Assembly (NCBI GenBank): GCA_025351485.1
Contig: JANXVU010000089.1
Coordinates: 6,513 to 70,512, forward strand
Length of the DNA: 64,000 bases
Direction: 5' to 3'
Source of the DNA: Candidatus Eiseniibacteriota bacterium
GTDB lineage: Bacteria > Eisenbacteria > RBG-16-71-46 > JACRLI01
Position 1 is the stretch's first letter; the number at the start of each line of letters is the position of its first letter. The position numbers were made by a program, and so were the translations under genes. Positions 15,632 to 57,151 of this stretch are shown piece after piece. Below the pieces are notes generated by a model, which had not been told where the DNA came from, searched no databases, and saw only the letters and a program-made list of their open reading frames with translations.

Positions 15632-15640
15632 TTGGCAGTC

Positions 15641-38466: not shown

Positions 38467-38484
38467 CCCGAGGATTCGAGGCGC

Positions 38485-38961
38485 ATGCCATCCTTCGCGC
38501 GATCCAGCCCAGGAACCAACCACCACAACACCCTGATCCTGCCCCGGGTGAAAGTCTTCTTTCAGCGGTTTCCCGGCACCCTGGGAAGCGACGCGGACCG
38601 GGGTATCGCCAACGTGCCCTTCGTGTTCAAAGTGGACGGCCGCCTGGTGGGCAAGGGAACGACCGCCGCGGACGGGAGCATCACCGTGTTCACCCTGCCG
38701 GCGGTGGGGCTCGCGGTGCTCAATATTTTCGGCACGGACTACAACCTGATCCGGGTGCCGCTCGAGCCGGCCCCGGATATCGCCGGCGCCCAGCGCAGGT
38801 TGCAGCTCCTGGGCTACATGTCCGCCTCGGTCACGAATACGCTGGAGATCAATGCCGGCGAGGCGCTCTTCCAGTTCCAGGCAGACAACCCGCCGCTCGA
38901 CCCGCAGGGCGACCTGCCGGATCCGACCACCACCAAGCTCAAATCGGTTTTCGGGGAATAG
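38485..38961 (+). CDS. Hypothetical protein with a C-terminal PG_binding_1-like domain
   Basis: C-terminus …AQRRLQLLGYMSASVTNTLEINAGEALFQFQADNPPLDPQGDLPDPTTTKL fits the peptidoglycan-binding repeat consensus. The middle region resembles that of the LysM paralogs. Confidence 0.45.
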   Translation: MPSFARSSPGTNHHNTLILPRVKVFFQRFPGTLGSDADRGIANVPFVFKVDGRLVGKGTTAADGSITVFTLPAVGLAVLNIFGTDYNLIRVPLEPAPDIAGAQRRLQLLGYMSASVTNTLEINAGEALFQFQADNPPLDPQGDLPDPTTTKLKSVFGE

Positions 38962-38964
38962 GCC

Positions 38965-40065: not shown

Positions 40066-40087
40066 GCCCGAGGGAGAGGGGATCGAA

Positions 40088-41843: not shown

Positions 41844-42320
41844 CTACTTCAAAGAAATCGTGAACGCCTTGACGATCTCGTCGAACTGCTCCTCCAGCCG
41901 CGCGAAGGCCGATTCCGGGGCGCTGGCGGTGATGATGAACATCACCGGGTCCTTGTAGACGTACCACTGCGCCTGGCGCACGACCACGTCCTTGGGGTTC
42001 TTCCAGGCGTACTGGACGTAGTTTGCGGAGCGCCCCGCGAGGCTGCGGCGCTCCTTCTTGATCTCCTTGTAGTCGGGCAGCTGGCCCTGCAGATCGAGCA
42101 TCAGTCCCTGCGCGAAGCCTTCCACATCCTTGAGCCCGGGAATATTGTCCTGGGTCACGGCCAGCGAGGGCTGCATGTCCTGGATGGTCTCCGGGAGCGC
42201 CGCCAGGTAGACGGAGCGGTCGGTCCAGCCTTCGGGCAGGGCCATCTTGAAACATGCGCCCCTGAGCTCGGGAATCACGGGCTTGGTGGGCGGGTGCGCG
42301 GGCGCCTTGGCATCGGCCAT
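41844..42320 (-). CDS. DUF1795/DcrB-like protein: candidate Eag-type T6SS effector chaperone
   Basis: About 158 aa. Pattern …VYLAALPE…LAVTQDNIP… …YVQYAWKNP… …FIITASAPESAF… resembles the DUF1795 fold. Located immediately downstream of a PAAR protein that carries hydrophobic segments. Confidence 0.5.
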   Translation of the reverse strand: MADAKAPAHPPTKPVIPELRGACFKMALPEGWTDRSVYLAALPETIQDMQPSLAVTQDNIPGLKDVEGFAQGLMLDLQGQLPDYKEIKKERRSLAGRSANYVQYAWKNPKDVVVRQAQWYVYKDPVMFIITASAPESAFARLEEQFDEIVKAFTISLK

Positions 42321-42330
42321 GGAATCTCCG

Positions 42331-43017
42331 TTAGGACTCGACGGTCCAGGAATCCTTGTCGAGGTCGGTCAGTGTGAGTTCGCAGTTGCCGGCGGGCAGG
42401 CCGAATTCCACCACCATGCCGTCGTTCCGCGAGTGGCCCTTGCGGATCTTGCCGTCGGGCAGTTTCAAGTCGTAGGCCACGGCCACGGCGGGGTCTCCGC
42501 TTGCCAGGGTCAGCTTGGCCTTGAAGAAGTGGCGCTGCATGGGGCAGGGGGGTGGCGGTCCGAGCCCGCCGCCGGCAGCCGCCCCGGCTGTTCCGGCCGC
42601 ACACACCGGGGCCGCGCCCGCCAGGGCGCCGCTCACCGCGCTCGAAGGGATCGCGGCGAGATCCAGGAGCCCCAGCAGAATGGCGACGAGCGCCATGAGC
42701 ATGTCCAGGATGGAAACCCCGATGTCCCCGATCAGGACGGCCGGAAATCCCATCACGATGGTCCCGCCGTGCCCGTGCAGGCTGGTCATGCGGGCGGCCG
42801 GCATGCCGCCGAAGAATACTCCCATGGATCCCATCATGATGGGCGCGGGCGGGCCCGTGGCGCACGCGCACATGCCGCCCACCACGGCCGCAGGCTGGCC
42901 CCCGATCATGACCGTCGGGCACCCCGGCGGCATGACGACGCCGCCCACGTGGGGCACCAGCACGGTGAACATCGGGCACACGTGGGGATCGCCAACTCGA
43001 GCGGCGGGGAATCCCAT
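42331..43017 (-). CDS. PAAR-domain protein with hydrophobic (TM-like) region and small C-terminal domain: candidate T6SS spike-tip/effector
   Basis: PAAR-like repeats (…ARVGDPHVCPM… GCPTVMIGGQPAAVVGGMCAC… GGMPAARMTSLHGHGG… VLIGD). Then a hydrophobic stretch (…SILDMLMALVAILLGLLDLAAIP…) and an about 70 aa C-terminal domain. Confidence 0.65.
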   Translation of the reverse strand: MGFPAARVGDPHVCPMFTVLVPHVGGVVMPPGCPTVMIGGQPAAVVGGMCACATGPPAPIMMGSMGVFFGGMPAARMTSLHGHGGTIVMGFPAVLIGDIGVSILDMLMALVAILLGLLDLAAIPSSAVSGALAGAAPVCAAGTAGAAAGGGLGPPPPCPMQRHFFKAKLTLASGDPAVAVAYDLKLPDGKIRKGHSRNDGMVVEFGLPAGNCELTLTDLDKDSWTVES

Positions 43018-43304: not shown

Positions 43305-43754
43305 GTGCCGAAGCAGAAATTCATCGGCGCTCAGCACGAGCGAGAAGCGGATCTCACCATGGGGGTGGAGATCCTCGACACGAACAAGACCCTTTTCGTC
43401 GCGGCCATGAATGAGCAGGCCGGAGACAACCCCGAGCCGATCCAGTGCCGGACCATGGGCGAGGTGTTCGACACCTTCAAGCCCAAGGTCGAGATCACCG
43501 TGGAAGGCGAGGACGGAGCCAACTCGGACGCCGAGATCAAGTTCAACCGTGTGGGCGACTTCCTGCCGGAATCCGTCATCGAGCAGTCCCCGGAACTTCG
43601 CGCGCAGCACACCGAGCTCCTGCTGCTCAAGGACCTCATGAACCAGCTGCGCAACAACAAGAGCCTGCGCAAGGCGGTGGACTCTCCCGACCGGGAAGTT
43701 CTCATCAAGGGTATCCAGGCGGCGCGCGCGGCCATCGGCGTGAAGGAGAGCTAG
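43305..43754 (+). CDS. tssB: T6SS contractile sheath small subunit TssB (VipA-like)
   Basis: About 150 aa, GGAGGAG RBS + GTG. Sits immediately upstream of the large sheath subunit. Sequence features are typical of TssB (…KQKFIGAQ…EREADLTMGVEILD…). Confidence 0.75.
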   Translation: MPKQKFIGAQHEREADLTMGVEILDTNKTLFVAAMNEQAGDNPEPIQCRTMGEVFDTFKPKVEITVEGEDGANSDAEIKFNRVGDFLPESVIEQSPELRAQHTELLLLKDLMNQLRNNKSLRKAVDSPDREVLIKGIQAARAAIGVKES

Positions 43755-43757
43755 TCC

Positions 43758-45179
43758 ATGGCAAACGAACAGGAACGCGCGCAAGAGCAGGCCGGAGCGG
43801 CCTACGCGGAACCGGCCAAGCCGGAAGACTTCACCTCGCAGCTCGCGGAGCTCAACGCTCCCAAGGCGGCGGGCAAGGCCGACGCCGCCATCGCGTGGCT
43901 GGGCAAGGCCATGCCGAGCGCTTCGGTGGAGGGCGCCAAGCTTCCGCCCATCGATCTGCTGGACCCGACCAAGAAGAAGCAGTACGAGGACCTGGTCAGG
44001 AACAAGAACTTTTCCGAGACCAAGGACCTGCTCGCCAAGCGGCTGAACGTCTGGAACGGCGCGCTCACGTCCTCCGAGGACCTTGAGACCCTCATCGAGA
44101 ACACCCAGCAGCGGCTGGAGAAGCTCGAGGAGCTGCTGAACAAGAACCTCAAGAAGGCGTTCGAGGTGATCCGCCCGCTGGAGACCAACTACCGCGCCGT
44201 GGACGGGTTCTTCATGAACGCCGCCGTGGAGGCGGGCGACAAGGTCGAGGTGAGCTTCCTGAACGCCTCCGCCGAGCAACTCCTGAACCCCGACGACCGC
44301 TCCATCTTCGAGGAAGGCCTTGCCGGCGCCATCCAGACGCGTTTCCGCGACTGGACGCTGAAGGAGACCTACTCGAACCTGTGCGTGCCGGGCTGGGTCG
44401 GCACGGTCCAGAACATCGACCGGCTGGGAATCCTGGGATCGCAGAACAAGGTCCAGGTGTTCTCGGACGCCGAGAACTACGAGAGCTTCAAGCAGCTCCA
44501 GGACAACCTGGACCAGCGGGCGTTCGAAGGCCTGCGTGGCGCCGGCCTGGAAAAGCAGTACGTCTCCCTGTTCGGCAACTGGCTGCTCGGGCGCAAGAAG
44601 TACGACTGGGAAGAAGACGACCTGTGGCTGCCGCCGTCGGCGCTGATGACCGGCGTGGTCTACAAGACCGACGAGACCAAGGGCATCCAGGAGGCCGCGG
44701 CCGGTTACCGCAAGGGCAAGATCCAGGGCTCGACCGGCGTGCGTTTCCGCGTCGATCGTCCCACCGGCGGCAAGATGCTGTTCCAGTACGGAGTCAGCCC
44801 GGTGGTGGACTGGGACGGCTACCCGATCGCCATGGGCGACGCCAACCTCTCGAGCAAGGAAGGCGTGGACGCTTACCCGCGCATCCGGACCGAGGACTGG
44901 CTGCTCAAGAACGTGTGCCACTACCTGAACAAGCAGGCCTACCAGAACATCACCGACACGTTCCGTTCGGCGGTGAAGGCCGACCTGCACGACTTCCTTT
45001 CCAAGTGCACCGGCCCGGACAGCGAAGTGAAGAGCTTCGACATCCAGGTGCAGGCCACCCCGGAAATGGAAAAGCGGCACGAAGTGGACGTGGTGCTGAC
45101 GGTGAAGTTCCAGAACTCGGTGCGTTCGTTCAACGTGAAGGTCAAGGAGGCCGACGCCCAGGTCCAGCAGGGCGCTTAG
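43758..45179 (+). CDS. tssC: T6SS contractile sheath large subunit TssC (VipB-like)
   Basis: 473 aa with the typical TssC length and conserved C-terminal sheath-domain blocks (…GYPIAMGDANLS…, …DVVLTVKFQNSV…). The tssB-tssC pairing is T6SS-specific. Confidence 0.8.
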   Translation: MANEQERAQEQAGAAYAEPAKPEDFTSQLAELNAPKAAGKADAAIAWLGKAMPSASVEGAKLPPIDLLDPTKKKQYEDLVRNKNFSETKDLLAKRLNVWNGALTSSEDLETLIENTQQRLEKLEELLNKNLKKAFEVIRPLETNYRAVDGFFMNAAVEAGDKVEVSFLNASAEQLLNPDDRSIFEEGLAGAIQTRFRDWTLKETYSNLCVPGWVGTVQNIDRLGILGSQNKVQVFSDAENYESFKQLQDNLDQRAFEGLRGAGLEKQYVSLFGNWLLGRKKYDWEEDDLWLPPSALMTGVVYKTDETKGIQEAAAGYRKGKIQGSTGVRFRVDRPTGGKMLFQYGVSPVVDWDGYPIAMGDANLSSKEGVDAYPRIRTEDWLLKNVCHYLNKQAYQNITDTFRSAVKADLHDFLSKCTGPDSEVKSFDIQVQATPEMEKRHEVDVVLTVKFQNSVRSFNVKVKEADAQVQQGA

Positions 45180-45256
45180 CCGGATTTCCATCGAACGTCC
45201 TCGGGTCCGCGGGTTGCCGCGGGCCTTCAAGGCAACCGTAACTCCAGGGAGCAATC

Positions 45257-45655
45257 ATGGCGCAGGAACCCAAGCTCAAGGTGGATGGAACCGCGGTTCC
45301 CAACCTGCTCTCGGTCTCCTACGGCCTCCGGGCCGGCGTGGACCGTGACGGGCGTCCCACCCGCATGCTCATCTTCGACGGAATCACCATTCGCCGAATC
45401 GGCGATGCCAAGACGACCCTCGCCAACTGGGCGAAGGACCCCAAGGAAAAGAACCGCAAGAGCGGGGAGATCGAGTTCTTCGGGGACGCCGGCAAGGCCA
45501 TCAAGAAACTGACCTGGAAGAACGGGTTCGTGAAGCACTACGACCTCCGTTACAATCCCGAGGCTGACCATGTGGAAGAGACTGTCGTGATCCAGGCCGA
45601 AGAGATCAACTCCGGCGGGATGAAGATCGAATGCCACTGGGCCGACAAGCAATAG
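45257..45655 (+). CDS. hcp: Hcp-like inner tube protein (paralog 1)
   Basis: 132 aa, located between tssC and vgrG. Sequence is β-rich, similar in size to Hcp family members. Assignment rests mainly on size and synteny. Confidence 0.55.
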   Translation: MAQEPKLKVDGTAVPNLLSVSYGLRAGVDRDGRPTRMLIFDGITIRRIGDAKTTLANWAKDPKEKNRKSGEIEFFGDAGKAIKKLTWKNGFVKHYDLRYNPEADHVEETVVIQAEEINSGGMKIECHWADKQ

Positions 45656-45669
45656 CGGAGGAATAGAAC

Positions 45670-46089
45670 ATGCCGATTCGTCAAATCAAGGTGGAGATCG
45701 ACGGCAAGCACATTTCCAACGTGCTCGCCGTGGACTACGGCCTGGAAGTGAGCCACGACGCCGACGGCAGCCCGAGCGATGCCCGCCCGCGCCTTGCCCG
45801 CATCTGCGTCACCCGCAAGACCGATGATTCGACGCAGCTGGGGGACTGGGCCTGCAAGCCCTTCCGCGGCCACTTCAAGTCCGGCAAGATCAGCTTCTTC
45901 GCGCCGGACGAAGAGACCAAGGTGCAGTCCACCATGTCATGGACCGATGGGTTCGTGACCCTGTACCGCGAATGGGTGCCGGACGTGCAGACGCACCGCG
46001 GGGATCCGATGGTGGAGTACATCGAGATCTCGGCCCAGAAGATCAAGATCAACGATACGGAAGTGGACGCGGACACCTGGACCACCTAG
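45670..46089 (+). CDS. hcp: Hcp-like inner tube protein (paralog 2, divergent)
   Basis: 139 aa. Shares the N-terminal pattern (…I.V.IDG…VS..YGL…) with paralog 1. GGAGGA RBS. Confidence 0.5.
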   Translation: MPIRQIKVEIDGKHISNVLAVDYGLEVSHDADGSPSDARPRLARICVTRKTDDSTQLGDWACKPFRGHFKSGKISFFAPDEETKVQSTMSWTDGFVTLYREWVPDVQTHRGDPMVEYIEISAQKIKINDTEVDADTWTT

Positions 46090-46189
46090 CCGAGGTGGCC
46101 CACGGAGGCTGATCGCGGAGTCGTCCGATGGGGCGTGCGCTTGATCCGGCGCACGCCCCGTCCGATTTTTTGAGGCCGGGAGAAAAATC

Positions 46190-48151
46190 ATGTCAGCGCA
46201 TGCGGATATCGACGTCAAGATCGGCGGCAAGACCGCCGTCGACCTGGGAATCAAGCTCGGGCGGCTGGTGCTGAATGAAGCCCTCGGGGCGCACGCCACG
46301 TTCTCCCTGGAGTGCCACGCGCTGGACGAGGGCCAGGCCGTGCAGGTTTCGGGCAGCCAAGCCAAGCTGGACGACCTGTTCAAGCAGCTGGGCAAGGACC
46401 TGGAGATCACCGTCCTGTCGCCCGACCGAAACACCACCCGCCATTCGCTGCAGTTCGTCGGCCTGGTCACCGACGTGCACAGCCAGCGCCTGCGCGGGGG
46501 CGGCTATACGGTGTTCCTGGACGGCAAGAGCCACACCATCCTGATGGACATGGAAACCCACTACCGGTACGGCCCGCTGGACGACTCTGCCCGCCACCTG
46601 CGCACCTTCCTTGAAGTGATCACCGGCGAGTACGGAACCCTGTGCGCCCTGCAACTCAGCGCCAACCCGGTGGTGGACTACGGCATGCAGTCGGCCGAGA
46701 CCGATTTCAATTTCGTGAACCGCCTGGCTCAGCGCGAAAAGGCGTGGTGCTTCTACGACGGCGTGAAACTCCAGATCACCGACCAGCTCCCGTCCCAGGT
46801 GGTGGATCTGACCATGGGCCCGAACCAGGCCGAGGACGCCCTGGACGCATTCCGCATCCGCACCGCTCTGGCGGTGGGCTCCGTGGGCGTGGCCACCGAG
46901 GACTGGAAGACCGGAACGTTCATGGCGGTCAAGACCGACACCCTGGCGCTGCCGGCGGCCATCCACCCGTGGGCGCAGCAGACCCGCTCGGTGTACGAGG
47001 CCAAGAAGACCCACATCCAGGCCGAGTTCGCCGAGCGGCACATGGCCAGCCAGAGCGAGCTCGAGGGATACCTCACCGCCCGCAAGGCCGCGTGGGCCAG
47101 TCACCTGGTCCAGGTCGAGGGCAACTCGTCCAACGCCGACGTGCGGATCGCGCGCAAGGTCAACCTGACCGCCCTGGGCGTGGGCCAGGCCTCCAAGTAC
47201 GTGGTCTCGAGCGTGTCCCACACCATGGACATCTTCCGGGGCACCTACGAGAACCACTTCGAGGCGTTCCCCGAGGAGGGCGCGACCCCGCGCCAGTCCC
47301 ATCACCGCGAGCAGGCGCTGGAACTGTGCGAAGCCCGGGTGATGACCCAGGGCGACGACGACCACGTGGGCCAGGTGCAGGTGCAGTTCTTCGGCGCCGG
47401 CCAGCGCGGCCAGATGTGGGCCCGGGTGGCCCAGCCCATCGCGGGCAAGGGCGCGGGCATGTTCGTGATCCCCGAGACCGGCGACAGCGTGATGGTCTCG
47501 TTCCTGGACGGCGATCCCAGCCGGCCCGTGGTGGTGGGCAGCGTCTATCGCGGCCAGGCCGCGGGCAAGCCCAAGACCTGGGACGACGTGGACAACGTCG
47601 CCAAGAACACCAAGAAGATCTGGCACACCCGCAGCGGCCACAAGATCGTGTTCGAGGACGACCCGGACGGCAGCAAGACCGACGGGACCATCCTGATCAT
47701 CACCGGCGACGGCAAGAACGAGATCAAGCTCACCGGCAAGGGCGGAACCGAAAAGATCGAGATCCGCACCAAGGGCAACATCGCGATCGGCGCCGACGGT
47801 TCGATCAGCATGAGCGCCGGGGGTGATATCCACCTGGAAGCCGGCGGCGAAATCGGGCTCAAGTCCAAGAAGAAGACCACCGTGGACGCGACCGAGGACG
47901 CGATCGTGAAGTCCAAGAAGAACATCACCTTGAGTGCGACCGAGGACGGCAAGTTCGAGGCCACCAAGAACCTGGAGCTTTCGGCCACGCTGAAGCTGGC
48001 TGCTTCGGGAAAGACGGGCGCCAAGGTGTCCACGCCCGCGCAGCTGGAGGTTTCGGGAACGGCGTCGGCCAAGCTCTCCGGCGGGACCGGTTCGGTCACC
48101 TGCGATCCGGCCGGAGTGACGGCCATGGGCCCGATGATCAAGCTGAACTAG
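46190..48151 (+). CDS. vgrG: VgrG spike protein (gp27/gp5-like, with C-terminal β-helix repeats)
   Basis: Phage baseplate-V/gp5 OB-fold signature (…VIPETGDSVMVSFLDGDPSRPVVVGSVY…). N-terminal gp27-like region. C-terminal repetitive β-helix (…KIEIRTKGNIAIGADGSISMSAGGDIHLEAGGEIGLKSKK…). Confidence 0.85.
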   Translation: MSAHADIDVKIGGKTAVDLGIKLGRLVLNEALGAHATFSLECHALDEGQAVQVSGSQAKLDDLFKQLGKDLEITVLSPDRNTTRHSLQFVGLVTDVHSQRLRGGGYTVFLDGKSHTILMDMETHYRYGPLDDSARHLRTFLEVITGEYGTLCALQLSANPVVDYGMQSAETDFNFVNRLAQREKAWCFYDGVKLQITDQLPSQVVDLTMGPNQAEDALDAFRIRTALAVGSVGVATEDWKTGTFMAVKTDTLALPAAIHPWAQQTRSVYEAKKTHIQAEFAERHMASQSELEGYLTARKAAWASHLVQVEGNSSNADVRIARKVNLTALGVGQASKYVVSSVSHTMDIFRGTYENHFEAFPEEGATPRQSHHREQALELCEARVMTQGDDDHVGQVQVQFFGAGQRGQMWARVAQPIAGKGAGMFVIPETGDSVMVSFLDGDPSRPVVVGSVYRGQAAGKPKTWDDVDNVAKNTKKIWHTRSGHKIVFEDDPDGSKTDGTILIITGDGKNEIKLTGKGGTEKIEIRTKGNIAIGADGSISMSAGGDIHLEAGGEIGLKSKKKTTVDATEDAIVKSKKNITLSATEDGKFEATKNLELSATLKLAASGKTGAKVSTPAQLEVSGTASAKLSGGTGSVTCDPAGVTAMGPMIKLN

Positions 48152-48170
48152 GCCGGGGTCCGCGAGTTCG

Positions 48171-49031
48171 ATGGCCCTTCCATTCCCGGTCCGGCGGTCC
48201 ATGTCCGGCGGCGCCGGCGGTTCGGCGCTGCCGCCCCTGCGTCTGCCCTTCACCATCGTGAGCACCGCCTCCAGCGGGCGCGCGCCCGCCGCGGGCCGGC
48301 GCAGCTGGGGCAACCGGCTGGGGCTCTGGTGGACCGATGCCGAGGAGGGCGAACCGGGCGTGGTGGTGACCGGCCTGCTGCCGCACGGGCCCGCATCCGC
48401 GGGCGGCGCGGTCAAGGTTGGCGACCTGGTGGTGGAAGTGGAAGGGGCGCGCGTCACGACCCTGGGAGACATCACCCGTTTTCTGGAAAACCAGGGCCCC
48501 GGACCGCTCCGCATGACCGTCAAGCGCGGCCCGCACGAGGAGCACACGGTGGTGCTGGACGTCCCGCCCGAGCCCGGAGAGGCCGCCGCGTCTGCCGCGG
48601 GGCCCGCCGGGGGCTACTCGGCCCGTGTTCCCACGACCGACCTCCTCGACTCGCTCAAGCGCAACATCGAGTGGATCCTGGGCAACCCGGTGCAGAGCGA
48701 GATCACCCACCCGGGAGTCTCCGCCGATCCCGAATTTGGCTGCCTGGGGGCGGACCTTGAATTCAGCCTGCGCACGGTGGGCCTGTCGGAAATCCGAAAC
48801 GCCATCGTGCAGTGCGAGCCCCGGCTCAAGGAAGTGGAAGTGGAGTCGGCCGAGTTCGAGGTGCGCGAAGAGGGCGAGGTCTCGCTCAAGCCGGGGATCC
48901 GCGTTCACGCCCTGATGTCCGGCACCGGGGAAAAGATCAAGATCGAATTGGAAGTCGCGGGCCTGGCCCGGGCGCGGTTCACCAACCGCCGCCGCACATC
49001 GGTGGAAGACGCGGGACTGGAGGGGCGGTAG
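48171..49031 (+). CDS. tssE: PDZ domain fused to gp25-like baseplate wedge protein (TssE-like)
   Basis: The N-terminal about 140 aa contain a PDZ-like fold (…GVVVTGLLPHGPASAGGAVKVGDLVVEVEGARVTTLGDI…). The C-terminal about 130 aa match the GPW/gp25 family (…LLDSLKRNIEWILGNPVQSEI…AIVQCEPRL…). High GC3 across both parts. Confidence 0.6.
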   Translation: MALPFPVRRSMSGGAGGSALPPLRLPFTIVSTASSGRAPAAGRRSWGNRLGLWWTDAEEGEPGVVVTGLLPHGPASAGGAVKVGDLVVEVEGARVTTLGDITRFLENQGPGPLRMTVKRGPHEEHTVVLDVPPEPGEAAASAAGPAGGYSARVPTTDLLDSLKRNIEWILGNPVQSEITHPGVSADPEFGCLGADLEFSLRTVGLSEIRNAIVQCEPRLKEVEVESAEFEVREEGEVSLKPGIRVHALMSGTGEKIKIELEVAGLARARFTNRRRTSVEDAGLEGR

Positions 49032-50759
49032 ATGGCGAGTGGATCCATGAGCCGAGGATGGGGCTGGCTCAAGCCCGAGGAGCGCGACTTTGAGGCCGTG
49101 CTCCGGCGGCTGCACAAGGAAGCCTCCGAATCCATCCCCGGCCTTTCGCCCGACCCCAAGCAGGCCGACCCGGTGATCGTGATGCTCCTGCGCGCGTTCG
49201 CGCGCGAATACGTGGAGCTCTACCATCTGCTGGACGACTCGGTGGGCATGGCCTACCGAACCCTGGTTTCCCGCCTGGTGGCGTTCCCGCACGCTCCCGA
49301 GCCCGCCACCACCGCCCTGCAGCTGGTGGTGAAGGACGCCGGCGCCAAGGTGCCGATCGACTTCGAGGCCATCTCCTCCCAGCCCGTGATCCTGGCAGGC
49401 AGGCGCAGCGTGCAGGCCCACTTTTCGCCCTACGACGAGGGCGTGGTGTCCAGCTTCGAAGCGGGACCGGTGGCGCTGGTGGAGCCTTCGGGCGTGGCCT
49501 GGCGGATGAGCCTGAACCCCAATGAGACTTCCGCGGGCCGCTGGCAGGCGCCGCCTCGCAACTACGCTTCGCTGTTCCTGGCCCTGGATTCACCCTCGCC
49601 CTCGGCCACCGACCCGGTCACGGTGTTCGTGCACGGGGGCGACCGCGCGGTGCAGCAGTGCCTGTGGTCGCGCTGGGTGATTCCGGCCTCCCAGGGGGGG
49701 CCGGCCATCCGGATCCACGACAACGTGCCGGAGCCGTTCGTGCCGGGGAAGGTGTTCTACGAGGGCGCCCCGTTCGAGCCCCCGATGTTCACCTTCCGCA
49801 GCGACGCGCGGCGCATCCGCAGCCCCTACGAGCCGCAGTTCGTGAAGGTCGGCGGCGAGGCGCTGCTCTCCCAGGCGTGCCCGTTCCCCAGGGAACTGGG
49901 GTCCCCGGGAGTGGCGCTTTCGCAGCCCCACGGCACGCGCCACTGGGTGCGGGTCGACCTGCCGCCCGACGTGGACCTGACGGCGCTGCGGCAGGTGCGC
50001 TTCGCCACCAATGCCGTGCTGGCCGCCAACCGCGAGCTGCGCACCTCGGGCGCGATCAACGTGGACGCCACACCCATCCACACCTGGCTCTTCCCCGAGA
50101 CCGTCGATTTCGATTCGCTGCTGCGCCTGGAACGGGTGATCGACCTGAAGTCGGGGCACCTGTACCAGTCGTCGGACTCGCACGAAGGCCTGGAGTCCCC
50201 GCGCGCCTACCGCCTGGTGGAGTGGCTGGACGGCGAGCGGCGGGCGCTCAAGGTGGAATTGCTGAACCGCGAGGACACTCCGCGGGCGAGCCAGGTGGAA
50301 ATCGTGTACTCGCTCACGCTGGGCACGGCCGCCAACGGGCTGGAGCCGGGCACGATCAGCCAGGTGTTCACGCCGCCCCAGGTGTTTCCGGGTCTCCTGT
50401 CCGTCAATAACCTGGTCCCGGCGATCGGCGGACGCCCGGCGCGCACCGCGGACCTGCAGGAAGACGAACTCCGCGCCGCGCTGCGCCACCGCGGCCGCAC
50501 GGTGGTCGCGAGCGACTACCTGGAGTCCGCGCGCGCGTTCGATCCGGATCGCGTCACGTCCGTTTCCCTGGGCCGGGGCGTGGCCCGTGGCCCGCGGGGG
50601 CTCCGCAGCACGGTGCGCCTGGACGTGGAGCTGAACGCCGCGGCGTTCGTAAGCGCCATGGAGCGCGAGTCGTTCCGTCTGCGCCTCGAAGGCTACCTGC
50701 AAGACCGGTCTGCGATGGGCGAGTGCGTCGAGGTGCGGCTGGCCGGAGGGCCCGCTTGA
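49032..50759 (+). CDS. tssF: Baseplate protein TssF-like (gp6-like)
   Basis: 575 aa. The N-terminal block (…DPVIVMLLRAFAREYVELYHLLDDS…) fits the TssF N-terminal consensus. Position after tssE. Confidence 0.6.
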   Translation: MASGSMSRGWGWLKPEERDFEAVLRRLHKEASESIPGLSPDPKQADPVIVMLLRAFAREYVELYHLLDDSVGMAYRTLVSRLVAFPHAPEPATTALQLVVKDAGAKVPIDFEAISSQPVILAGRRSVQAHFSPYDEGVVSSFEAGPVALVEPSGVAWRMSLNPNETSAGRWQAPPRNYASLFLALDSPSPSATDPVTVFVHGGDRAVQQCLWSRWVIPASQGGPAIRIHDNVPEPFVPGKVFYEGAPFEPPMFTFRSDARRIRSPYEPQFVKVGGEALLSQACPFPRELGSPGVALSQPHGTRHWVRVDLPPDVDLTALRQVRFATNAVLAANRELRTSGAINVDATPIHTWLFPETVDFDSLLRLERVIDLKSGHLYQSSDSHEGLESPRAYRLVEWLDGERRALKVELLNREDTPRASQVEIVYSLTLGTAANGLEPGTISQVFTPPQVFPGLLSVNNLVPAIGGRPARTADLQEDELRAALRHRGRTVVASDYLESARAFDPDRVTSVSLGRGVARGPRGLRSTVRLDVELNAAAFVSAMERESFRLRLEGYLQDRSAMGECVEVRLAGGPA

Positions 50760-51787
50760 CCGCCGCCCTTCAACTGATCATGCCGGACCTGCTGGCCGAG
50801 CGGCCGGGGGATGCGGTGGAGAGTGCGATCCTGTCCCTGGTGGAGATGGGCGCAGACCGCCAGCAGATCGAACTCATCCCGGTGGGCATCTTTCGCCGCT
50901 ACCGCGGCCAGCTGCTGGGCTTCTACCCCGCGCTGGGCGTCGAGGTCCGGCAGGGCGACACCATCCGCCTCTACGTGGCCGAGCGGGGCCTGGCCGACCG
51001 GCTGCCCGAGGGGCTGCTCGCCCCGCTCCCCGACGAGGGCCGGCCCGAAAGCGTGTTCGACACCCAGAACGGCGGGATCATTCCTCCGACCGGGTGGGAG
51101 GCGCCTCCGGATGGGGCGCCGGGGCAGGGCTACGACCCGGAGGAACTGTTCCACCGCCAGCTGGACGGCGGCCGCAAGCTGCTTCGCCTGCTGGACCGGG
51201 CGCTGCGACGGGCCCGCCGGGACGTGATCTTGCAGCGGCAGTCGCTGAAGTTCCTGGTCAATGATCCTCGATTTGCCCGGAACCTCCTGGGCCTCCTGCA
51301 CCTGGAGGCGCTGGATTCGGGGGATGCGGCGGCCGTTTATGCAGCGGCCTCGCTGGCGGGCTTCCAGGACGCCGTGGGCACGCTGGAAGAGGCTGCCGCC
51401 TTCCTGGCCCAGCTGTTCCAGGTGGAGGTGCGGGCCGAGGAGGCCCGCGCGGGAATGCTGCCCATTCCCAAGCCGCTGCACATGAAGCTCGGCGGCCCCA
51501 ATGCCCGGCTGGGGCAGGGCAGCGTGCCGGGACGGAACTTCCGCGACCCCCGGCCGGCGGTCAAGCTGCTCGTGGGCCCCATGGGCGCCGAAAATGCCGC
51601 GCGCCGCTACCGGGACGAGTGGGCCCGGCGCTCGTTCGAAAACGCGGCCGCTGCCATGGTGCCGGCTTCCCGACCTTTCAAGGTGATCTATGACGTGGTC
51701 CGGGAGGAGCGCAAGGCGCGCCCCGGGCTTCTGCCGCACGCGCTGCTGGGGCAGACGATGTACCTGGGACGCCCCCGAACCGCCTGA
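50756..51787 (+). CDS. tssG: Baseplate protein TssG-like
   Basis: About 340 aa, translationally coupled to tssF (candidate TTG overlapping TGA). Assignment rests on size and synteny; sequence is weakly diagnostic. Confidence 0.45.
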   Translation: MTAALQLIMPDLLAERPGDAVESAILSLVEMGADRQQIELIPVGIFRRYRGQLLGFYPALGVEVRQGDTIRLYVAERGLADRLPEGLLAPLPDEGRPESVFDTQNGGIIPPTGWEAPPDGAPGQGYDPEELFHRQLDGGRKLLRLLDRALRRARRDVILQRQSLKFLVNDPRFARNLLGLLHLEALDSGDAAAVYAAASLAGFQDAVGTLEEAAAFLAQLFQVEVRAEEARAGMLPIPKPLHMKLGGPNARLGQGSVPGRNFRDPRPAVKLLVGPMGAENAARRYRDEWARRSFENAAAAMVPASRPFKVIYDVVREERKARPGLLPHALLGQTMYLGRPRTA

Positions 51788-51901
51788 CCGGACGCGCGGG
51801 GCACGAGTCCTGCACAACCGCCGGACGGTGTGGTAGAGTCCTGCTGGAATTGATCTTTCCCCGCCCGGCGGGGACCTAACCCAACGGAGAAATTGAGGCC
51901 C

Positions 51902-53335
51902 ATGCCCTTCGATCGCCGCGGATCCGTGAACTGGCAGGACGGGATGCTCATTGAATCGTCCCACCTCACGGCCGAGACGGAGTTCCTGCGTTCCCTGGCG
52001 GCCCGCTCCGCCCGGACCGCCCTGGGTTCGTTCGGCCTGTACGCCGACCCGGGCGAGACCGCCCCGCTGGACTTGCAAGTAAGCGCCTCCGGCGGGGAGT
52101 GCACGGCCGAGCTGCGCCGCTTCCGTGGATTTTTTCCGGACGGCACCTGGGTGGACTTCGACTCGCCCGAGGCCGGCACGGTGCTCGGCCGCACCATGCT
52201 GGAAGGCTCCGGCCCCAGCTCGGTGGGTGTGTTCCTGTACGCGCACGAGGATGAATTCCTGGGGATCGGCGAGCCCGACCCCGCCGACGACCCGCCGCGC
52301 AGCCCCTACCGGCTTCCCCGCCTGGAGCTCCGGCTCGGCGAGGACCCCAAATGGCCCCGGGGACGCAGCCTGCGCCTGGCCACCGTGCAGGTGAACGGAG
52401 GCGTCGCCGTGATGGATGGCGCGCACGTGCCGCCGTCCGCCACGCTGGCCTCGTGGCCGGCGCTGCGGGAGCTGGGGGAGCGCTACGGCGAATACCTGGA
52501 GCGGTGGCGCCGGCTGGCGATCGGCAACTTCATCACGCTGCTTCCCATCGCCACGGCGCCCGCGGGCGGGCTGGGGCGCGAGATCGCCTACGCCAAGCGC
52601 GAAACGGCTTTCCAGCTGGCGGTCGAGATTTCCCGCAACCAGTCGGCCCAGCCGCTGCTCACCCGGGTGGGATCGCCCGCCGAGTGGTTCGCCTCGGTGC
52701 AGACCAACGCCCGCCTGATCGCGACGCTGCTGGAGCTGAACCGCGACCTGGCCGGAGCCATGCAGGACGGCGCCAATTTTGCAGCGGCCATGGGCACGCT
52801 GCGCGACACCTCCACGTTCGACGTGTACCAGGAATCGCTGCGGGCGATGGTCCAGCAGGTGGAAGTGTTCATCGACGCGGTGGAGACGCTCCTGACCGGT
52901 CTGTTCGAGGCGCGCGAGGGCGAGAAGGACGTGCTGCGCTACCGCGACAAGGAGTACGCGTTCACTCCGTACGCCAAGAGAGTGTACCGGCGCGAGTCCG
53001 ACCGCGAATACCTCGAGATCCAGGGGCTCTCGGCCTCCGAGGTGGAGGACTACGTCGTGCTCATGAAGGGCGGCATCGGCGCGGCGGTACGCAAGTCGCC
53101 GCCCAACACCCACGTGGGGCCCAACGAGCGCTCCACCTGGCCCCAGGCCGACCCGGCGTTCGTCGACCACACCTTCATGGACGGCGCGGCCCTGTTTCAC
53201 CCCCATGGATTCCAGCCGCAGCGCGAGATCAACCGCCTGACCCTTATCTGCATCGGCGGCGGCGACCTCTCGATCTTCGAGCAGGGCGATGACCAGGACG
53301 TGCGAGTGTTCATTCGCAGGAAGGCGAGTTCGTAG
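51902..53335 (+). CDS. tssK: Baseplate protein TssK-like
   Basis: About 477 aa. The N-terminus …VNWQDGMLIESSHL… resembles the TssK 'W.EGM.L.PQHFQ' start. Position after tssG. Confidence 0.55.
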   Translation: MPFDRRGSVNWQDGMLIESSHLTAETEFLRSLAARSARTALGSFGLYADPGETAPLDLQVSASGGECTAELRRFRGFFPDGTWVDFDSPEAGTVLGRTMLEGSGPSSVGVFLYAHEDEFLGIGEPDPADDPPRSPYRLPRLELRLGEDPKWPRGRSLRLATVQVNGGVAVMDGAHVPPSATLASWPALRELGERYGEYLERWRRLAIGNFITLLPIATAPAGGLGREIAYAKRETAFQLAVEISRNQSAQPLLTRVGSPAEWFASVQTNARLIATLLELNRDLAGAMQDGANFAAAMGTLRDTSTFDVYQESLRAMVQQVEVFIDAVETLLTGLFEAREGEKDVLRYRDKEYAFTPYAKRVYRRESDREYLEIQGLSASEVEDYVVLMKGGIGAAVRKSPPNTHVGPNERSTWPQADPAFVDHTFMDGAALFHPHGFQPQREINRLTLICIGGGDLSIFEQGDDQDVRVFIRRKASS

Positions 53336-53343
53336 GACCACCT

Positions 53344-54288
53344 ATGCCCACGCTAGTCGAAAACATCGACAACCTGTTTGCGGAGATCGGCGCGCTCGAA
53401 AAGGGCGGCGCCTTTTCCCCGGATTCGTTCAACCAGAACCTGAAGGGCATCCTTTCGGCGTTCGAGCTGCTCCGCAACCAGCAGGAGCTGGGCTCGATGG
53501 CCGACGACGCCCTGTACACGCGCATCCGCGAGGTGGAGCCCACCGAGTCGCAGCTGCGCTTCCTGACCTCCCACATCCTGGGGATGTACCTGGAAGCGTG
53601 GGCCCACGGACCTTCGGGCTACCGCCGCTCCTACCAGGACCTGCTGCGCTTCCGGCCCGACGACGCGCGAGTGGACGGCGACTTCATCGAGATCGTGCTC
53701 ATGCCGCGCCTGCTGGTGCTGCGCGACCTGGGCGGCCAGGCCGACCTGGGCTACCACCTGTTGATGCACCTGGCCGACTATCTGCAAACGTTCGGCGCTC
53801 CCTCCGGCCTGCCCGCCAGGCCCACGCGCGCCGACCTGGAGGCGATGGGCCCGTCCAGGCTGCTGCTGGGTTTCGCGCGGCGCCGGCTGGCGTTCCCGGG
53901 CAAGCGCCTGGTGGACATGCCGGACGCCTGGGAATACGGGCTGGCCCGCGAAAAGTACTTCGAGTCGCTGCGGGTCCGGGGCAAGAAGCTGCAGCTGGAC
54001 CTGGAAGCCTACCTGCTCCGGCTGGACCTGCTGAGCAAAGTGCCCTGGTGGAAGCGCCTGCTGGATGCCATCGGGCGCTTCTTCCGCGCGATCGGCACGT
54101 GGCTGGGAGCCAGGCTGGAAAAGCTGCCGGCCGGCGGAGTGTTCTGGTCGGCGTTCTGGGTGGTTTTTTCGCTCGCGGTGATGGTGGGCGTGACCCTGCT
54201 GTGGCTCTCCTTCTATGAACATCGCCTGCGGGACTTCCGCGGCAAGGGCCTGAACGCGCAGACGCGCGACATGGAGGTGGTCAAGTGA
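53344..54288 (+). CDS. Cytoplasmic protein with single C-terminal TM anchor: candidate TssL/DotU-like membrane-complex component
   Basis: 314 aa. One predicted TM helix near the C-terminus (…GVFWSAFWVVFSLAVMVGVTLLWLSF…) with a short tail. Topology and position after tssK resemble TssL; there is no sequence-level proof. Confidence 0.35.
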   Translation: MPTLVENIDNLFAEIGALEKGGAFSPDSFNQNLKGILSAFELLRNQQELGSMADDALYTRIREVEPTESQLRFLTSHILGMYLEAWAHGPSGYRRSYQDLLRFRPDDARVDGDFIEIVLMPRLLVLRDLGGQADLGYHLLMHLADYLQTFGAPSGLPARPTRADLEAMGPSRLLLGFARRRLAFPGKRLVDMPDAWEYGLAREKYFESLRVRGKKLQLDLEAYLLRLDLLSKVPWWKRLLDAIGRFFRAIGTWLGARLEKLPAGGVFWSAFWVVFSLAVMVGVTLLWLSFYEHRLRDFRGKGLNAQTRDMEVVK

Positions 54289-56528
54289 GCGGCTTGATTG
54301 GAACCTTCATGGCCAACGCGCAGAATGCCGCCGACACCGCCAAGCAGGCGCGCGAAATGGGCAAGAACGCCAGGAAGACCCAGGACGGGCGGCGCATCTA
54401 CAAGATCGCCTGCCTGGGCCACGCCCGCAGCGGCAAGACCACCTACTGGAGCGTGTTCCACGAGGCCAGCCGCGGCCGCATGGACGAATTCAACATCCAG
54501 ACGGGCGACAACACCACCGCGGCCTACCTGGTGCGGCAGCGGGAAGCCATGCAGTCGGGCGCGTTCTACATCCCCGCGCCCGGCGAAAAACCCGCCGACT
54601 ACGAGCCGGGGTATCCGCCCGAATCCGACCTGCTGGTGAATCTGTTGTTCATGGCGCGCGAAGGCGGCGGCCGCGAGATTCCGATCATGGTGCAGGACTA
54701 TCCGGGACGGGCCATCAGCATCGAGGACACCGATGGGCGCGCCCAGGAAGTGGTGGAATTTCTCAAGGGCGCGGACGGGATCCTGTTCTTCGTGGACGCC
54801 TACTCCACCCGCGAAAGCCCGCACAAACTCACCGAGCAGCTGCTGGGATTCAACTCGCTTCTGAAGCACCTCGAGGACCGGCACGGCCGCATCAACAGGC
54901 CGGTGGGCCTGGTGCTGACCAAGGCGGACATGCTGGACGAGTACCGGCCGGCCAACCCGTCGGAGCTCATCTCGGACGCCGACCAGCGCCGCCGTGGCGA
55001 GATCTACAGCAAGTTCCTGGCGCAGCTCCTGAAGGGCAACGTGTTCGCCCAGGACGCCGCGTGGAAGACCCGCGTGGAAAAGACGCTCACGCGACTTCGC
55101 TCGTTCGCCGACGCGCTGCTCAAGAAGACCCAGGCCACCCAGTTCTTCGTGGTCTCGGCGGTCGGCGACAAGCGCCGGAGGCCCATCGAGCCCGCCGCGG
55201 CCGGGGACAGCATCGCCAACACCAGCATGGCCGCCAGCAGCAGCTCCATGGCGTTTGCCGTGGGGCGCCACGAGACCGGCATGGAAGAGCCGCTGCGCTG
55301 GATGATCCACCAGCTCCTGGTCAAGAACCAGGTGCGCAAGGCCGACCGGCTGCGCAACGGCGCCCTGGCGGCCGCGGCCGTCTACTCGCTCGCCCTGACG
55401 CTTCCGTTCCTGCTCTACCTGGGATGCGCGGTGCCGCGCCTGGAGGCAGACCTGCGCAAGGAGCCGCTGCCGGCCCTGCAGATCCTTAAGGACACCCGGG
55501 GGTTCGAGGAGAACCACCTGGTGAAGCTGTGGTCGGTGATGACCCGCCACCACGATTTCCTGCCGTCCGCGCAGGCCATTCGCACCCGGGTGGCCGACCG
55601 GGTGGTGGAAGAGGGCCGCAACGCGCTCCTGACCGTGCTCAGCCACAACAAGGCACGCGGCGTGAACCCGGACCCGGAAGCTTCGGAGTTCTGCTCCCGG
55701 TGGGGGTTCTTCCTGGAGACCTGCACCCAGGAGCTCCGGGATTCCACGGCCGACTACCGCGACTCGCGGGCCAAGATGTACTGCCTGCGAAAGGTCTTCA
55801 TCCAGGCCGGCACCAACTTCAAGCTGGCCAGCACCAACGACCGGCGCGACGCGTTCCTGAACCTGACGCGCCTCGCCGGCACCCAGTTGTGCATGGAGGA
55901 TACGGTCAAGCTGGCGGCCCAGGCCCTGGCCGACGGCATCACCAAGGACGACCGGATCGCCCCGGCCCCGGTGCCCAGCGCTGCGGCCGGCGGCGGCGGT
56001 GGCGGTGGCGGGCCCTCGCTCAAGGACTCCTACAACACCGCGGTGGCCCAGTTCGGGCCGGGCAGCCCGCCGGAGTCGCGCGTCAGCCTGAAGCTGATTT
56101 CGGACCTGGAAGGCCTGCTCGCCTCGCGCTACCCCCACGACGCCGTGTCGGTGGAGGTGGAAAAACGGATCCACGCCTACCTCTCGGCGGTGGAGAAGTT
56201 CAAGAACGGCACGCCGCTCAAGCTCAAGGTCACGCAGCTGTCCAGCCCGGCGCGGCTCAAGCTTCCGGAAGTCAGCGGGGAGAGGGAGTACCTGCCGGAC
56301 GACGAGATCTCGATCCCTCGCTGGAAGCTGAACAGCAAGGTGCGGTTCGTGTTCTACGCCAACCTGAACTCCGCGCCGCTGGTGCTGGACGACCTGGTGG
56401 GCAAGCAGAACCAGCCGCTGCAGGTGAACCTGCCGGCCAAGGCCGGAGGCAACGTGGTGTTCCAGTTCGAGGTCAGCTCGCCGCCGGTGACGGATGAAAC
56501 CGTGCCGCCGCTGTCGAAGATTCCCTAG
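54285..56528 (+). CDS. P-loop GTPase/NTPase domain membrane protein (747 aa): possible non-canonical TssM-like component
   Basis: Walker A (ACLGHARSGKTTYW) at residue about 40, Walker B-like (ILFFVDA) and NKxD-like (LVLTKAD). One predicted TM at about residue 385 (…AAAVYSLALTLPFLLYLGCAV…) followed by about 350 aa. The GTG start overlaps the upstream stop (GTGA). Confidence 0.55.
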   Translation: MSGLIGTFMANAQNAADTAKQAREMGKNARKTQDGRRIYKIACLGHARSGKTTYWSVFHEASRGRMDEFNIQTGDNTTAAYLVRQREAMQSGAFYIPAPGEKPADYEPGYPPESDLLVNLLFMAREGGGREIPIMVQDYPGRAISIEDTDGRAQEVVEFLKGADGILFFVDAYSTRESPHKLTEQLLGFNSLLKHLEDRHGRINRPVGLVLTKADMLDEYRPANPSELISDADQRRRGEIYSKFLAQLLKGNVFAQDAAWKTRVEKTLTRLRSFADALLKKTQATQFFVVSAVGDKRRRPIEPAAAGDSIANTSMAASSSSMAFAVGRHETGMEEPLRWMIHQLLVKNQVRKADRLRNGALAAAAVYSLALTLPFLLYLGCAVPRLEADLRKEPLPALQILKDTRGFEENHLVKLWSVMTRHHDFLPSAQAIRTRVADRVVEEGRNALLTVLSHNKARGVNPDPEASEFCSRWGFFLETCTQELRDSTADYRDSRAKMYCLRKVFIQAGTNFKLASTNDRRDAFLNLTRLAGTQLCMEDTVKLAAQALADGITKDDRIAPAPVPSAAAGGGGGGGGPSLKDSYNTAVAQFGPGSPPESRVSLKLISDLEGLLASRYPHDAVSVEVEKRIHAYLSAVEKFKNGTPLKLKVTQLSSPARLKLPEVSGEREYLPDDEISIPRWKLNSKVRFVFYANLNSAPLVLDDLVGKQNQPLQVNLPAKAGGNVVFQFEVSSPPVTDETVPPLSKIP

Positions 56529-56581
56529 CGGGACTGCGCGACCGGGTGGGAAGGCCGTCTCCGGACCTTCATGAAAGTAGA

Positions 56582-56618
56582 AGAGGAGCCTTCCACCAGG
56601 AAGGCTCCTCTCTTTTTG
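56582..56618 (+). terminator. Rho-independent terminator (13 bp stem AGAGGAGCCTTCC / GGAAGGCTCCTCT, loop ACCA, T-run)
   Basis: Perfect hairpin followed by CTTTTT. It sits 54 nt after the stop of the P-loop protein gene and closes the tssB…cluster transcription unit. Confidence 0.7.
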
Positions 56619-56652: not shown

Positions 56653-57151
56653 CTACCAGCGCGCCGACTTGGTCACTTCGATGTTCAGGTCCGAGCCTTC
56701 GCCCGGCGTGCTGCTGTCGTGCCAGATCAGGAAGCCCAGGAGCGGCGGAAGCAGCAGCTTCTTGATGATGCTCGCGCTCTGGCTCTTGGCGATCCCCGCG
56801 GCCGGGTCGGCCAGGTGGGCCGGCACCACCACGTGCTTGCCCTTGTACATGAACGTGAACTGGGTGACGTCGAACTTGGCTCCGTCCCCCGTCTTTTCGC
56901 CCATCTTCAGCGTGATGAAGCCCGCCACTCCGGCGGCCAGCACCGGGGGGCCCTTGGGGTCGGCCTGGAAGGCCTCCGGCAGGGTGACCGAGATCGTGTC
57001 GCCATTGGAGTTCGAGCCCGAAATTCCGTACCCCAGGCGCACCTTGAAGGAATCGCCTTCGCGCAGCGCGGCGGCGCCGGCAACCACCGACAGGACCGAC
57101 GATGCGGCCAGGGAAACTGCTACCACCAAGCTCAGGGTTTTTCTCATCCAT
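56653..57151 (-). CDS. Secreted hypothetical protein (about 166 aa)
   Basis: Signal peptide (MRKTLSLVVAVSLAASSVLSVVAGAAA) with no lipobox Cys. No recognisable domain. Confidence 0.45.

Follow-up and report, generated by a model that had tools for sequence, protein, structure and literature searches.

The window analysed here, a 64-kb stretch of contig JANXVU010000089.1 from one genome (about 68% GC), carries genes of a type VI secretion system (T6SS) in which the tail genes are followed by two genes for predicted membrane proteins. Real genes were picked out by frame-specific GC content at third codon positions (GC3), families were assigned by Pfam and NCBIfam models run on the open reading frames (ORFs), and absences stated for the window refer to these 64 kb. 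The tail operon occupies positions 43305–56528 and consists of eleven genes, all on the plus strand, with GC3 values of 0.82–0.92 and a spacing of −37 to 105 nt, encoding in order TssB, TssC, Hcp, Hcp, VgrG, PDZ::TssE, TssF, TssG, TssK, a 314-aa protein and a GTPase. Gene order, coordinates (the TssB start exactly), single-strand layout with tight spacing and the strong terminator at 56.58 kb are all as the first-pass annotation of this DNA had described them. The set of T6SS genes is larger than the interval it flagged, as it overlooked the upstream ClpV, PAAR and Eag-type genes; the set starts at about 32.7 kb and there includes genes for ClpV, a PAAR protein, a DUF1795 chaperone and a pseudokinase-FGE protein. 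The features of the operon and its immediate downstream flank are as follows.

43305–43754, plus strand: TssB, small sheath subunit, 149 aa (PF05591, 1.8e-9)
43758–45179, plus strand: TssC, large sheath subunit, T6SSiii type (PF17541, 2.7e-52)
45257–45655, plus strand: Hcp/TssD tube protein 1, 132 aa (PF17642, 2.7e-17; Bacteroidales TssD in the Protein Data Bank, PDB, 1.2e-6)
45670–46089, plus strand: Hcp/TssD tube protein 2, 139 aa (PF17642, 1.4e-14)
46127–46162, plus strand: terminator-like hairpin inside the operon, between hcp2 and vgrG (15-bp stem with 11 GC pairs, T-run)
46190–48151, plus strand: VgrG/TssI spike (Phage_GPD, 4e-12; Phage_base_V, 5e-18; TIGR01646, 7e-27)
48171–49031, plus strand: PDZ::TssE fusion, PDZ at aa 55–120 and gp25/TssE at aa 149–262 (PDZ_6, 3.9e-9; GPW_gp25, 7.4e-6; TIGR03357, 4.3e-5)
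49032–50759, plus strand: TssF baseplate wedge, very divergent (sole direct match TIGR02243, a generic baseplate model, 1.8e-5)
50723–51787, plus strand: TssG (PF06996, 7.7e-12; TIGR03347, 2.7e-10)
51902–53335, plus strand: TssK, connector of baseplate and membrane complex, divergent (TIGR03353, 5.8e-6, over the N-terminal 190 aa)
53344–54288, plus strand: 314-aa tail-anchored inner-membrane protein (hydropathy and AlphaFold2 model; no family match)
54285–56528, plus strand: 747-aa membrane GTPase (G domain, then a transmembrane segment, TM, at aa ~359–384, then a C-terminal region of ~360 aa)
56582–56611, plus strand: intrinsic terminator at the operon end, between convergent genes (13-bp GC-rich stem, T-run)
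56653–57147, minus strand: 164-aa protein with a Sec signal peptide and no lipobox, convergent with the operon

The gene content is that of a TssB/TssC sheath around an Hcp tube, a VgrG–PAAR tip, a TssE/F/G/K baseplate and a ClpV ATPase for recycling. For comparison we used related loci coded L001–L005, L007, L009, L011, L014, L015, L017 and the P0097 locus. TssB starts with the GTG at 43305, and its N-terminus, MPKQKFIGA, is kept in five homologues (L007, L009, L011, L014 and L015). Paired Hcp genes are also present in L003, L004, L007, L009, L011 and L014, and the PDZ::TssE fusion is found in the group of the window (L003, L004, L007) and in L009, with TssE unfused in L011, L014 and L015. 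The TssE and TssF genes abut with a gap of 0 nt, and TssF is 34% identical to an L011 protein that itself has a weak match to PF05947 (T6SS_TssF). TssG probably starts at the ATG at 50780, since similarity to its relatives begins at about aa 14–20. tssG and tssK are direct neighbours separated by 105 nt, and the TssK homologue of L015 matches PF05936 faintly. The hairpin after hcp2 is stronger than the one that closes the operon and is likely an attenuator separating the sheath and tube genes from the baseplate genes; the sheath and tube genes would then be expressed above those for the baseplate and membrane proteins.

Among the ORFs scanned across the window with Pfam and NCBIfam, no match was found to models of TssA (ImpA_N), TssJ, TssL/DotU or TssM/IcmF, none of TssN, TssO, TssP, TssQ or TssR was detected, and no tape-measure, tail-terminator or lysis gene was found by these models. 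The first-pass annotation had already noticed that TssA, TssJ and a canonical TssM could not be recognised, and it had taken the cluster for a T6SS rather than an extracellular contractile injection system (eCIS); both statements hold, the latter on the split sheath, TssK and the adjacent ClpV. The model searches that it had proposed as a check matched T6SS core components, with a split sheath. The subtype T6SSiii is already known to lack TssA, TssJ, TssL and TssM.

The sheath and tube proteins match PF17541 and PF17642 and not the sheath models of T6SSi. A tblastn search of 72,556 plasmids with TssC returned ten matches, all of them TssC proteins of Bacteroidota T6SSiii at 25–30% identity; the same collection has 431 records with a match to E. 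coli TssM, and not one of its T6SSi loci was hit by the TssC of the window. BLASTP detects no similarity between this TssC and its counterpart in E. coli T6SSi, and in the PDB it has a weak match to T4 gp18 (E 0.002) and none to T6SSi sheath structures. TssB, TssC, TssK and ClpV are detectably similar to proteins of a Tenacibaculum T6SSiii locus, TssC with 28% identity (E 1e-40) and TssK with 22% (E 4e-10); sequence searches of the PDB with TssK gave nothing useful. In a neighbour-joining tree of this single protein, TssC, built from 466 columns and with E. coli T6SSi as the root, the sequences fall into two clades that both have 100/100 bootstrap support. One holds Bacteroidota and the L017 group, and the other the window group, a mid group whose TssC is at 45–50% identity, and L015; L017, the nearest outgroup TssC, is from a short contig that ends before the membrane genes. 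TssC identity is 24–28% between the two clades and 13–17% to T6SSi. By these comparisons of sequence the lineage of the window system stands as the sister of Bacteroidota T6SSiii, at a wide distance from T6SSi. The TssC phylogeny, which the earlier annotation had suggested as a check, sets the cluster apart from T6SSi, and it also brings out the affinity to T6SSiii, which that annotation had overlooked.

The two genes after tssK encode the putative membrane module. The 314-aa protein is made up of a cytoplasmic domain of ~255 aa that is helical throughout, a C-terminal TM at aa ~265–290 and a short periplasmic tail (AlphaFold2 pLDDT 75.8), and its homologues form 10 clusters. Its gene overlaps that of the GTPase by 4 nt, so the two are probably translationally coupled. 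The GTPase carries its motifs at aa 45–294 (G1 GHARSGKT, G3 DYPG, G4 TKAD, G5 VSAVG), has no TM ahead of the G domain, and its C-terminal ~360 aa, predicted to be periplasmic, comprise a helical part and a C-terminal beta-sandwich. Close relatives fall into 7 clusters among 5.8e9 proteins, and the wider family has 64 relatives among 1.84e9 representatives, ~45 of which, with lengths of 620–840 aa, have the N-terminal G domain and the TM in common. In the full-length family, G1 GxxxxGK[ST] is present in 42/42 members, G3 DYxG in 40/42 and G4 TKxD in 37/42, with a FFVSxxG-like G5; all 42 have a hydrophobic, TM-like segment at aa 325–366, followed by 260–490 residues (698 in one outlier). Sequence searches of the PDB gave nothing useful for either membrane protein. 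The only Pfam assignment of the G domain is DO-GTPase2 (PF19993), with 30.9 bits against a cut-off of 27, and precomputed matches of homologues to this family are only 'faint'. In DO-GTPase conflict systems two GTPases are paired and come with a GAP1 partner and with effectors that vary (Kaur et al. 2020, PMC7159879). The GTPase of the window shares with them a TRAFAC-class GTPase family, whereas its loci have no second GTPase, GAP1 or conflict effectors and its gene always stands in a T6SS baseplate operon; the PF19993 match reflects a related TRAFAC family and not membership in a conflict system.

The trio of TssK, a ~310-aa tail-anchored protein and a ~740-aa GTPase with a TM occurs together with tail genes in six independent locus types with a GC content of 50–73%. 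Every readable locus with the GTPase has tssK, the ~310-aa gene and the GTPase gene in that order, and tail genes of T6SSiii type are present near the trio wherever the contig reaches far enough. In L001–L005 the GTPase is 40–51% identical to that of the window. In L009 the trio is found relocated, upstream of ClpV and on the other strand, with 27–34% identity; in L015, at 50% GC, all components from TssB to the GTPase are homologous; and the trio is also present in the P0097 locus, where the GTPase is related at E 4.5e-8. The fact that the trio is kept across deep divergence and rearrangement argues that the 314-aa protein and the GTPase work together with TssK.

Some genes next to the operons may contribute further components. 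The 164-aa protein encoded downstream has homologues of 33–41% identity at the same position in L001, L002 and L003 and is absent after the GTPase gene in L004; in L015 a signal-peptide protein of the same size follows the GTPase gene, with a non-significant full-length alignment. It may serve the membrane module as a periplasmic accessory. As an analogue of TssJ it was rejected, having no similarity to E. coli TssJ (0.05%). Relatives carry extra genes at L001 8686–17908, L003 12377–21175, L011 17562–21440 and L014 17394–21434. A TPR protein and a ~400-aa protein are common to L001/L003 and L011/L014, and in L001/L003 the gene for a CsgG-like TPR lipoprotein lies beside them, with PP2C, three FHA proteins and a fusion of FHA and SLT transglycosylase also encoded next to the T6SS. 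The set of TPR, ~400-aa and CsgG-like genes is absent from the whole 64-kb window. These extra genes are candidates for regulatory and outer-membrane parts, and the FHA, PP2C and SLT genes of L001/L003 together with the pseudokinase of the window give a hint of possible phospho-regulation.

How the membrane module relates to TssL and TssM was examined with TssL and TssM of E. coli Sakai and plasmid-borne homologues. The 314-aa protein shares with TssL a helical cytoplasmic domain, a single C-terminal TM and a gene position beside tssK and an NTPase gene. In sequence, hhalign gave 0.4% with E. coli TssL and 0.1% with a TssL profile of 7 sequences, equal to the reversed control, phmmer and hmmsearch against the PDB found no match, and Foldseek found no match in the PDB for its AlphaFold2 model. 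The 314-aa protein is therefore TssL-like in topology and gene position only, and the label 'TssL-like' that it had received earlier applies in that sense and not to sequence, nor convincingly to fold.

The GTPase is laid out like TssM: a P-loop NTPase domain in the cytoplasm is followed by a TM and then by a large C-terminal region taken as periplasmic. The N-terminal TM hairpin is absent, PF14331, PF06761 and PF06744 gave no match at E <= 0.01, and no TssM sequence was matched in the PDB; the periplasmic fold of TssM was not found either, the AlphaFold2 model of the G domain being poor and the fold search on the G domain weak. Aligning a 42-sequence profile of the GTPase with a 9-sequence profile of the TssM NTPase by hhalign gave 81.5% (E 1e-5), the 155 aligned columns extending from G3 to G5, against 0.1–0.2% for reversed-sequence controls. 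A profile built as a control from the G domains of Era, Der, HflX and MnmE reached 95.8% with the GTPase, above the TssM score, and 93.7% with TssM. The 81.5% score was for this reason rejected as proof of specific homology, and the comparison shows only that the GTPase and TssM are both Era-like TRAFAC GTPases. Two further features are missing from Era, Der, HflX and MnmE: an extended G4 motif, [TS][KR]xD-h-h-x-G-[FM], present in 9/9 TssM and 36/42 GTPase sequences (e.g. TKADLIAGF and TKADLLDGF), and a long insert between G4 and G5, of 106–113 aa in TssM and 73–78 aa in the GTPase family, compared with about 25–31 aa in the controls. Both families also have an aromatic-h-h-S motif at G5 and a TM after the G domain. 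Judged from these sequence motifs, specific homology between the GTPase and TssM is an evenly balanced proposition, and the GTPase may be a reduced relative of TssM rather than a wholly alternative anchor.

Set against T6SSi, the operon mirrors the order tssK–tssL–tssM with tssK, a gene for a small tail-anchored inner-membrane protein and one for a large P-loop inner-membrane protein, and the TKxDLxxGF motif at G4 and the long G4–G5 insert are common to TssM and the window GTPase. On the other side, comparisons of TssC, TssK and TssL with the E. coli proteins show no detectable similarity, the GTPase has 747 aa compared with ~1,140 aa of TssM and lacks the N-terminal TM hairpin, and there is neither TssJ nor TssA. 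Our preferred reading, to which we give a probability of about 70%, is that the locus encodes a functional chromosomal T6SS of a lineage sister to Bacteroidota T6SSiii, equipped with a distinct putative membrane module. The chromosomal location follows from the presence in the window of trmD, rnhB, 6S RNA and an exopolysaccharide export cluster, which also indicate a diderm host; diderm signs are a Wza-type outer-membrane exporter and lipoprotein signals. The first-pass annotation had suggested a distinct architectural type, and this is borne out by the TssC clade with its 100% bootstrap support and by the two membrane proteins kept after tssK in the related loci that have the trio. Its further suggestion of an alternative envelope-spanning anchor stands as far as a distinct putative membrane module is concerned, with the qualifications that the GTPase may be a reduced relative of TssM and that spanning of the envelope is inferred.

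Topology, synteny and motifs suggest how such a system could work. The 314-aa protein and the GTPase would together make up a platform in the inner membrane onto which TssK docks the baseplate, and the pair would fill the role of TssL/TssM in T6SSi and of TssNQOPR in T6SSiii. The G domain would face the cytoplasm, and the ~360-aa helical and beta-sandwich region would reach into the periplasm. GTP binding or hydrolysis may gate assembly or firing, as the G1–G5 motifs are fully conserved. The periplasmic domain, probably with partners, would bridge toward the outer membrane; candidate partners are the 164-aa secreted protein (56653–57147) and, in relatives, the TPR, ~400-aa and CsgG-like set. 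The cargo would include a PAAR-TM effector, handled by an Eag-type chaperone of the DUF1795 family.

Several points weigh against this reading. No outer-membrane component was identified in the window, and by itself the ~360-aa periplasmic domain may not be long enough to extend as far as the outer membrane. In L011 and L014, two loci of the mid group, the trio is missing within ±10 kb. The system is known from genes in one 64-kb window, and a canonical or T6SSiii-type membrane complex may be encoded elsewhere in the genome. The lack of an outer-membrane component and the two loci without the trio are also what would be expected if the 314-aa protein and the GTPase were regulatory or assembly accessories, such as a nucleotide-dependent checkpoint or a positioning factor, and the real trans-envelope complex were encoded elsewhere, by the TPR, ~400-aa and CsgG-like genes in relatives or by unlinked TssJLM or TssNQOPR genes. 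That L001/L003 have the TPR and ~400-aa genes in common with L011/L014, and that the CsgG-like gene adjoins them in the former pair, points the same way, as does the fact that GTPases are usually switches. This explanation is nevertheless unlikely in our estimate: the trio is joined to tssK wherever it is seen, even when relocated, both proteins are integral membrane proteins with a topology matching TssL and TssM, and the TPR and ~400-aa genes are missing from the entire window.

The affinity of the tail raises the question of whether the locus is simply an ordinary T6SSiii in which TssN, TssO, TssP, TssQ and TssR are too divergent or lie outside the window, the two membrane proteins being lineage-specific extras. 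T6SSiii consists of TssB–K with a membrane complex of TssN/Q/O/P/R; its loci are often scattered over more than one place in the genome, and detection of TssO, TssQ and TssR is frequently difficult (PMC10781749), which together with the match of the tail genes to T6SSiii-type models speaks for this possibility. The window system shares with T6SSiii the sheath and tube type, the several Hcp paralogues and the absence of TssA, TssJ, TssL and TssM. However, tssN is nearly ubiquitous in T6SSiii and normally lies between tssK and tssG (PMC10781749), a place where the window has only the 105-nt gap, and it is after tssK that the 314-aa and GTPase genes follow; the T6SSiii complex, moreover, is without an NTPase. 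TssN, TssO and TssR are annotated in the Tenacibaculum locus and none of them has a match in the window by the models run; Tenacibaculum TssN differs in topology, with ~5 N-terminal TM segments, and gave 0.2% by hhalign against the 314-aa family. The window TssC belongs to a separate sister clade outside the Bacteroidota clade with 100% support, the GC content of 68% (50–73% in relatives) is unlike that of T6SSiii hosts, and T6SSiii was found in 0 of >20,000 non-Bacteroidota genomes (PMC10781749). An ordinary T6SSiii is hence very improbable. Least credible of all, and close to negligible, is an eCIS, a T6SSiv-like system or a domesticated phage tail without membrane anchoring. The weak match of TssC to T4 gp18 and to no T6SSi sheath structure, and the match of TssF to nothing but a generic baseplate model, would fit such an origin, and T6SSiv and eCIS (Amoebophilus, Afp/PVC-like) resemble the window system in having a contractile sheath, tube and baseplate of phage-tail ancestry and no TssJLM. 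They differ from it in that the window has a split TssB/TssC sheath, TssK, TssG, a conserved adjacent ClpV and a PAAR/Eag-type cargo module, and no tape-measure, tail-terminator or lysis genes.

The genes upstream of the operon, from the pseudokinase-FGE gene to the PAAR gene, are arranged as follows.

32732–34666, minus strand: pseudokinase-like domain fused to an FGE-sulfatase domain (FGE-sulfatase, 2e-43; partial Pkinase, 1.5e-8; start codon uncertain)
34656–37103, minus strand: TssH/ClpV-type double-AAA+ ATPase with a shortened middle domain (Pfam Clp_N, AAA, AAA_lid_9, AAA_2, ClpB_D2-small)
37810–38466, plus strand: PG_binding_1 protein (Pfam/NCBIfam)
38485–38961, plus strand: 158-aa protein with a peptidoglycan-binding-like C-terminus (Pfam/NCBIfam and reading of the sequence)
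38965–40065, plus strand: 366-aa metallopeptidase-like protein (HExxHxxxxxH; metzincin-like HEIGHFLRLDH)
40088–40855, plus strand: HEAT-repeat protein (Pfam/NCBIfam)
40852–41742, plus strand: paralogous HEAT lipoprotein (LAAC lipobox)
41844–42320, minus strand: DcrB/DUF1795-family protein, adjoining the PAAR-TM gene (PF08786, 2.8e-14)
42331–43017, minus strand: PAAR spike-tip protein with a hydrophobic segment at aa 85–131 and a small C-terminal domain (PAAR_motif, 3e-19; hydropathy)

The ClpV gene is divergent from the tail operon, and its product matches TIGR03345 (ClpV1) at 9e-196 and ClpB at 4e-247, both under the trusted cut-offs; a ClpV gene adjoins tssB in at least 7 related loci (L007, L009, L011, L014, L015, L017 and the P0097 locus). 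The pseudokinase-FGE protein has a degenerate kinase domain without HRD or DFG and an FGE domain related to GldK/PorK. A homologue of 47% identity adjoins ClpV in L009 (4896–6776, minus strand); the window and L009, which both have this gene beside ClpV, share only 59–71% identity in ClpV and TssC. The protein may be a regulator. Eag chaperones, by which T6SS effectors with transmembrane segments are stabilised, belong to the DUF1795/DcrB family, and the putative chaperone role of the 41844–42320 product is drawn from its membership in that family. The PAAR-TM protein, with its DUF1795 chaperone, is likely an effector; reading its N-terminus as a prePAAR motif was rejected, as it resembles an ordinary first PAAR repeat. 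The block at 37810–41742 has no homologues in the related loci compared and therefore lies outside the conserved core. It probably contains cargo and immunity genes, plausibly a peptidoglycan-targeting effector with cytoplasmic and periplasmic immunity paralogues. The HEAT lipoprotein and the peptidoglycan-binding proteins were ruled out as conserved parts of the anchor, their homologues being absent from related loci.

The remainder of the window holds an exopolysaccharide cluster (1–16749, plus strand) that encodes UDP-GlcNAc 2-epimerase, a Wza-like Poly_export/SLBB protein, Wzz/GNVR, a Wzy_C ligase-like protein, Wzc, Wzy, a flippase, glycosyltransferases, a 1288-aa AsnB-GT4 fusion and an epimerase/dehydratase, and a 996-aa protein (16955–19945, plus strand) in which a Ser/Thr kinase is fused to a STAND/AAA NTPase and TPR repeats. 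A 6S/SsrS RNA gene (29536–29712, minus strand) lies between rnhB and a 311-aa ORF and matches the full-length Rfam model RF00013 with 57.3 bits. Regarding hosts of related systems, the gene after the membrane module in L015 (12973–14421, plus strand) encodes a Big_5 protein with a C-terminal sorting domain of the type IX secretion system (T9SS), which hints that the L015 host belongs to the FCB (Fibrobacterota–Chlorobiota–Bacteroidota) group. Of the public records of metagenome-assembled genomes (MAGs) with the system, L005 (DATKKS010000117.1) is labelled Candidatus Saccharimonadales and P0039 (MCL1592760.1) Actinomycetia, and a profile scan of genome contigs with the GTPase alignment found only one MAG contig, of 73% GC, labelled Ca. 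Saccharimonadales. Both labels are probably binning errors, given the 73% GC of the Saccharimonadales contig and the diderm type of the T6SS.

Searches of the literature yielded no publication describing a new subtype of this kind or a T6SS whose anchor is DO-GTPase-like, nor one in which the assembly accessions are cited, and the variant is probably undescribed so far. Standard T6SS detection models that need TssJLM or TssN–R would miss or mis-score such systems. The GC content of 50–73% makes an origin in Bacteroidota unlikely, and the lineage would extend tail genes of T6SSiii type beyond that phylum. The candidate membrane complex is unusually small, and it includes a conserved GTPase whose nucleotide cycle could gate firing. 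Two anchors have been characterised to date, TssJLM in Pseudomonadota and TssNQOPR in Bacteroidota, and they may have originated separately or one may have taken the place of the other; three evolutionary scenarios were left open in PMC10781749. A T6SSiii-type tail combined with a minimal module of a tail-anchored protein and a single-pass GTPase offers a testable intermediate for the origin of these anchors. We tentatively consider, at somewhat less than even odds, that the window represents a fifth, unnamed T6SS lineage, sister to T6SSiii, that has kept a reduced ancestral NTPase anchor of TssM type beside tssK. If so, a membrane complex with a TssM-like GTPase would already have been present in the ancestor shared by T6SSi and T6SSiii, Bacteroidota would later have swapped in TssNQOPR for it, and this would settle the choice among the three scenarios.

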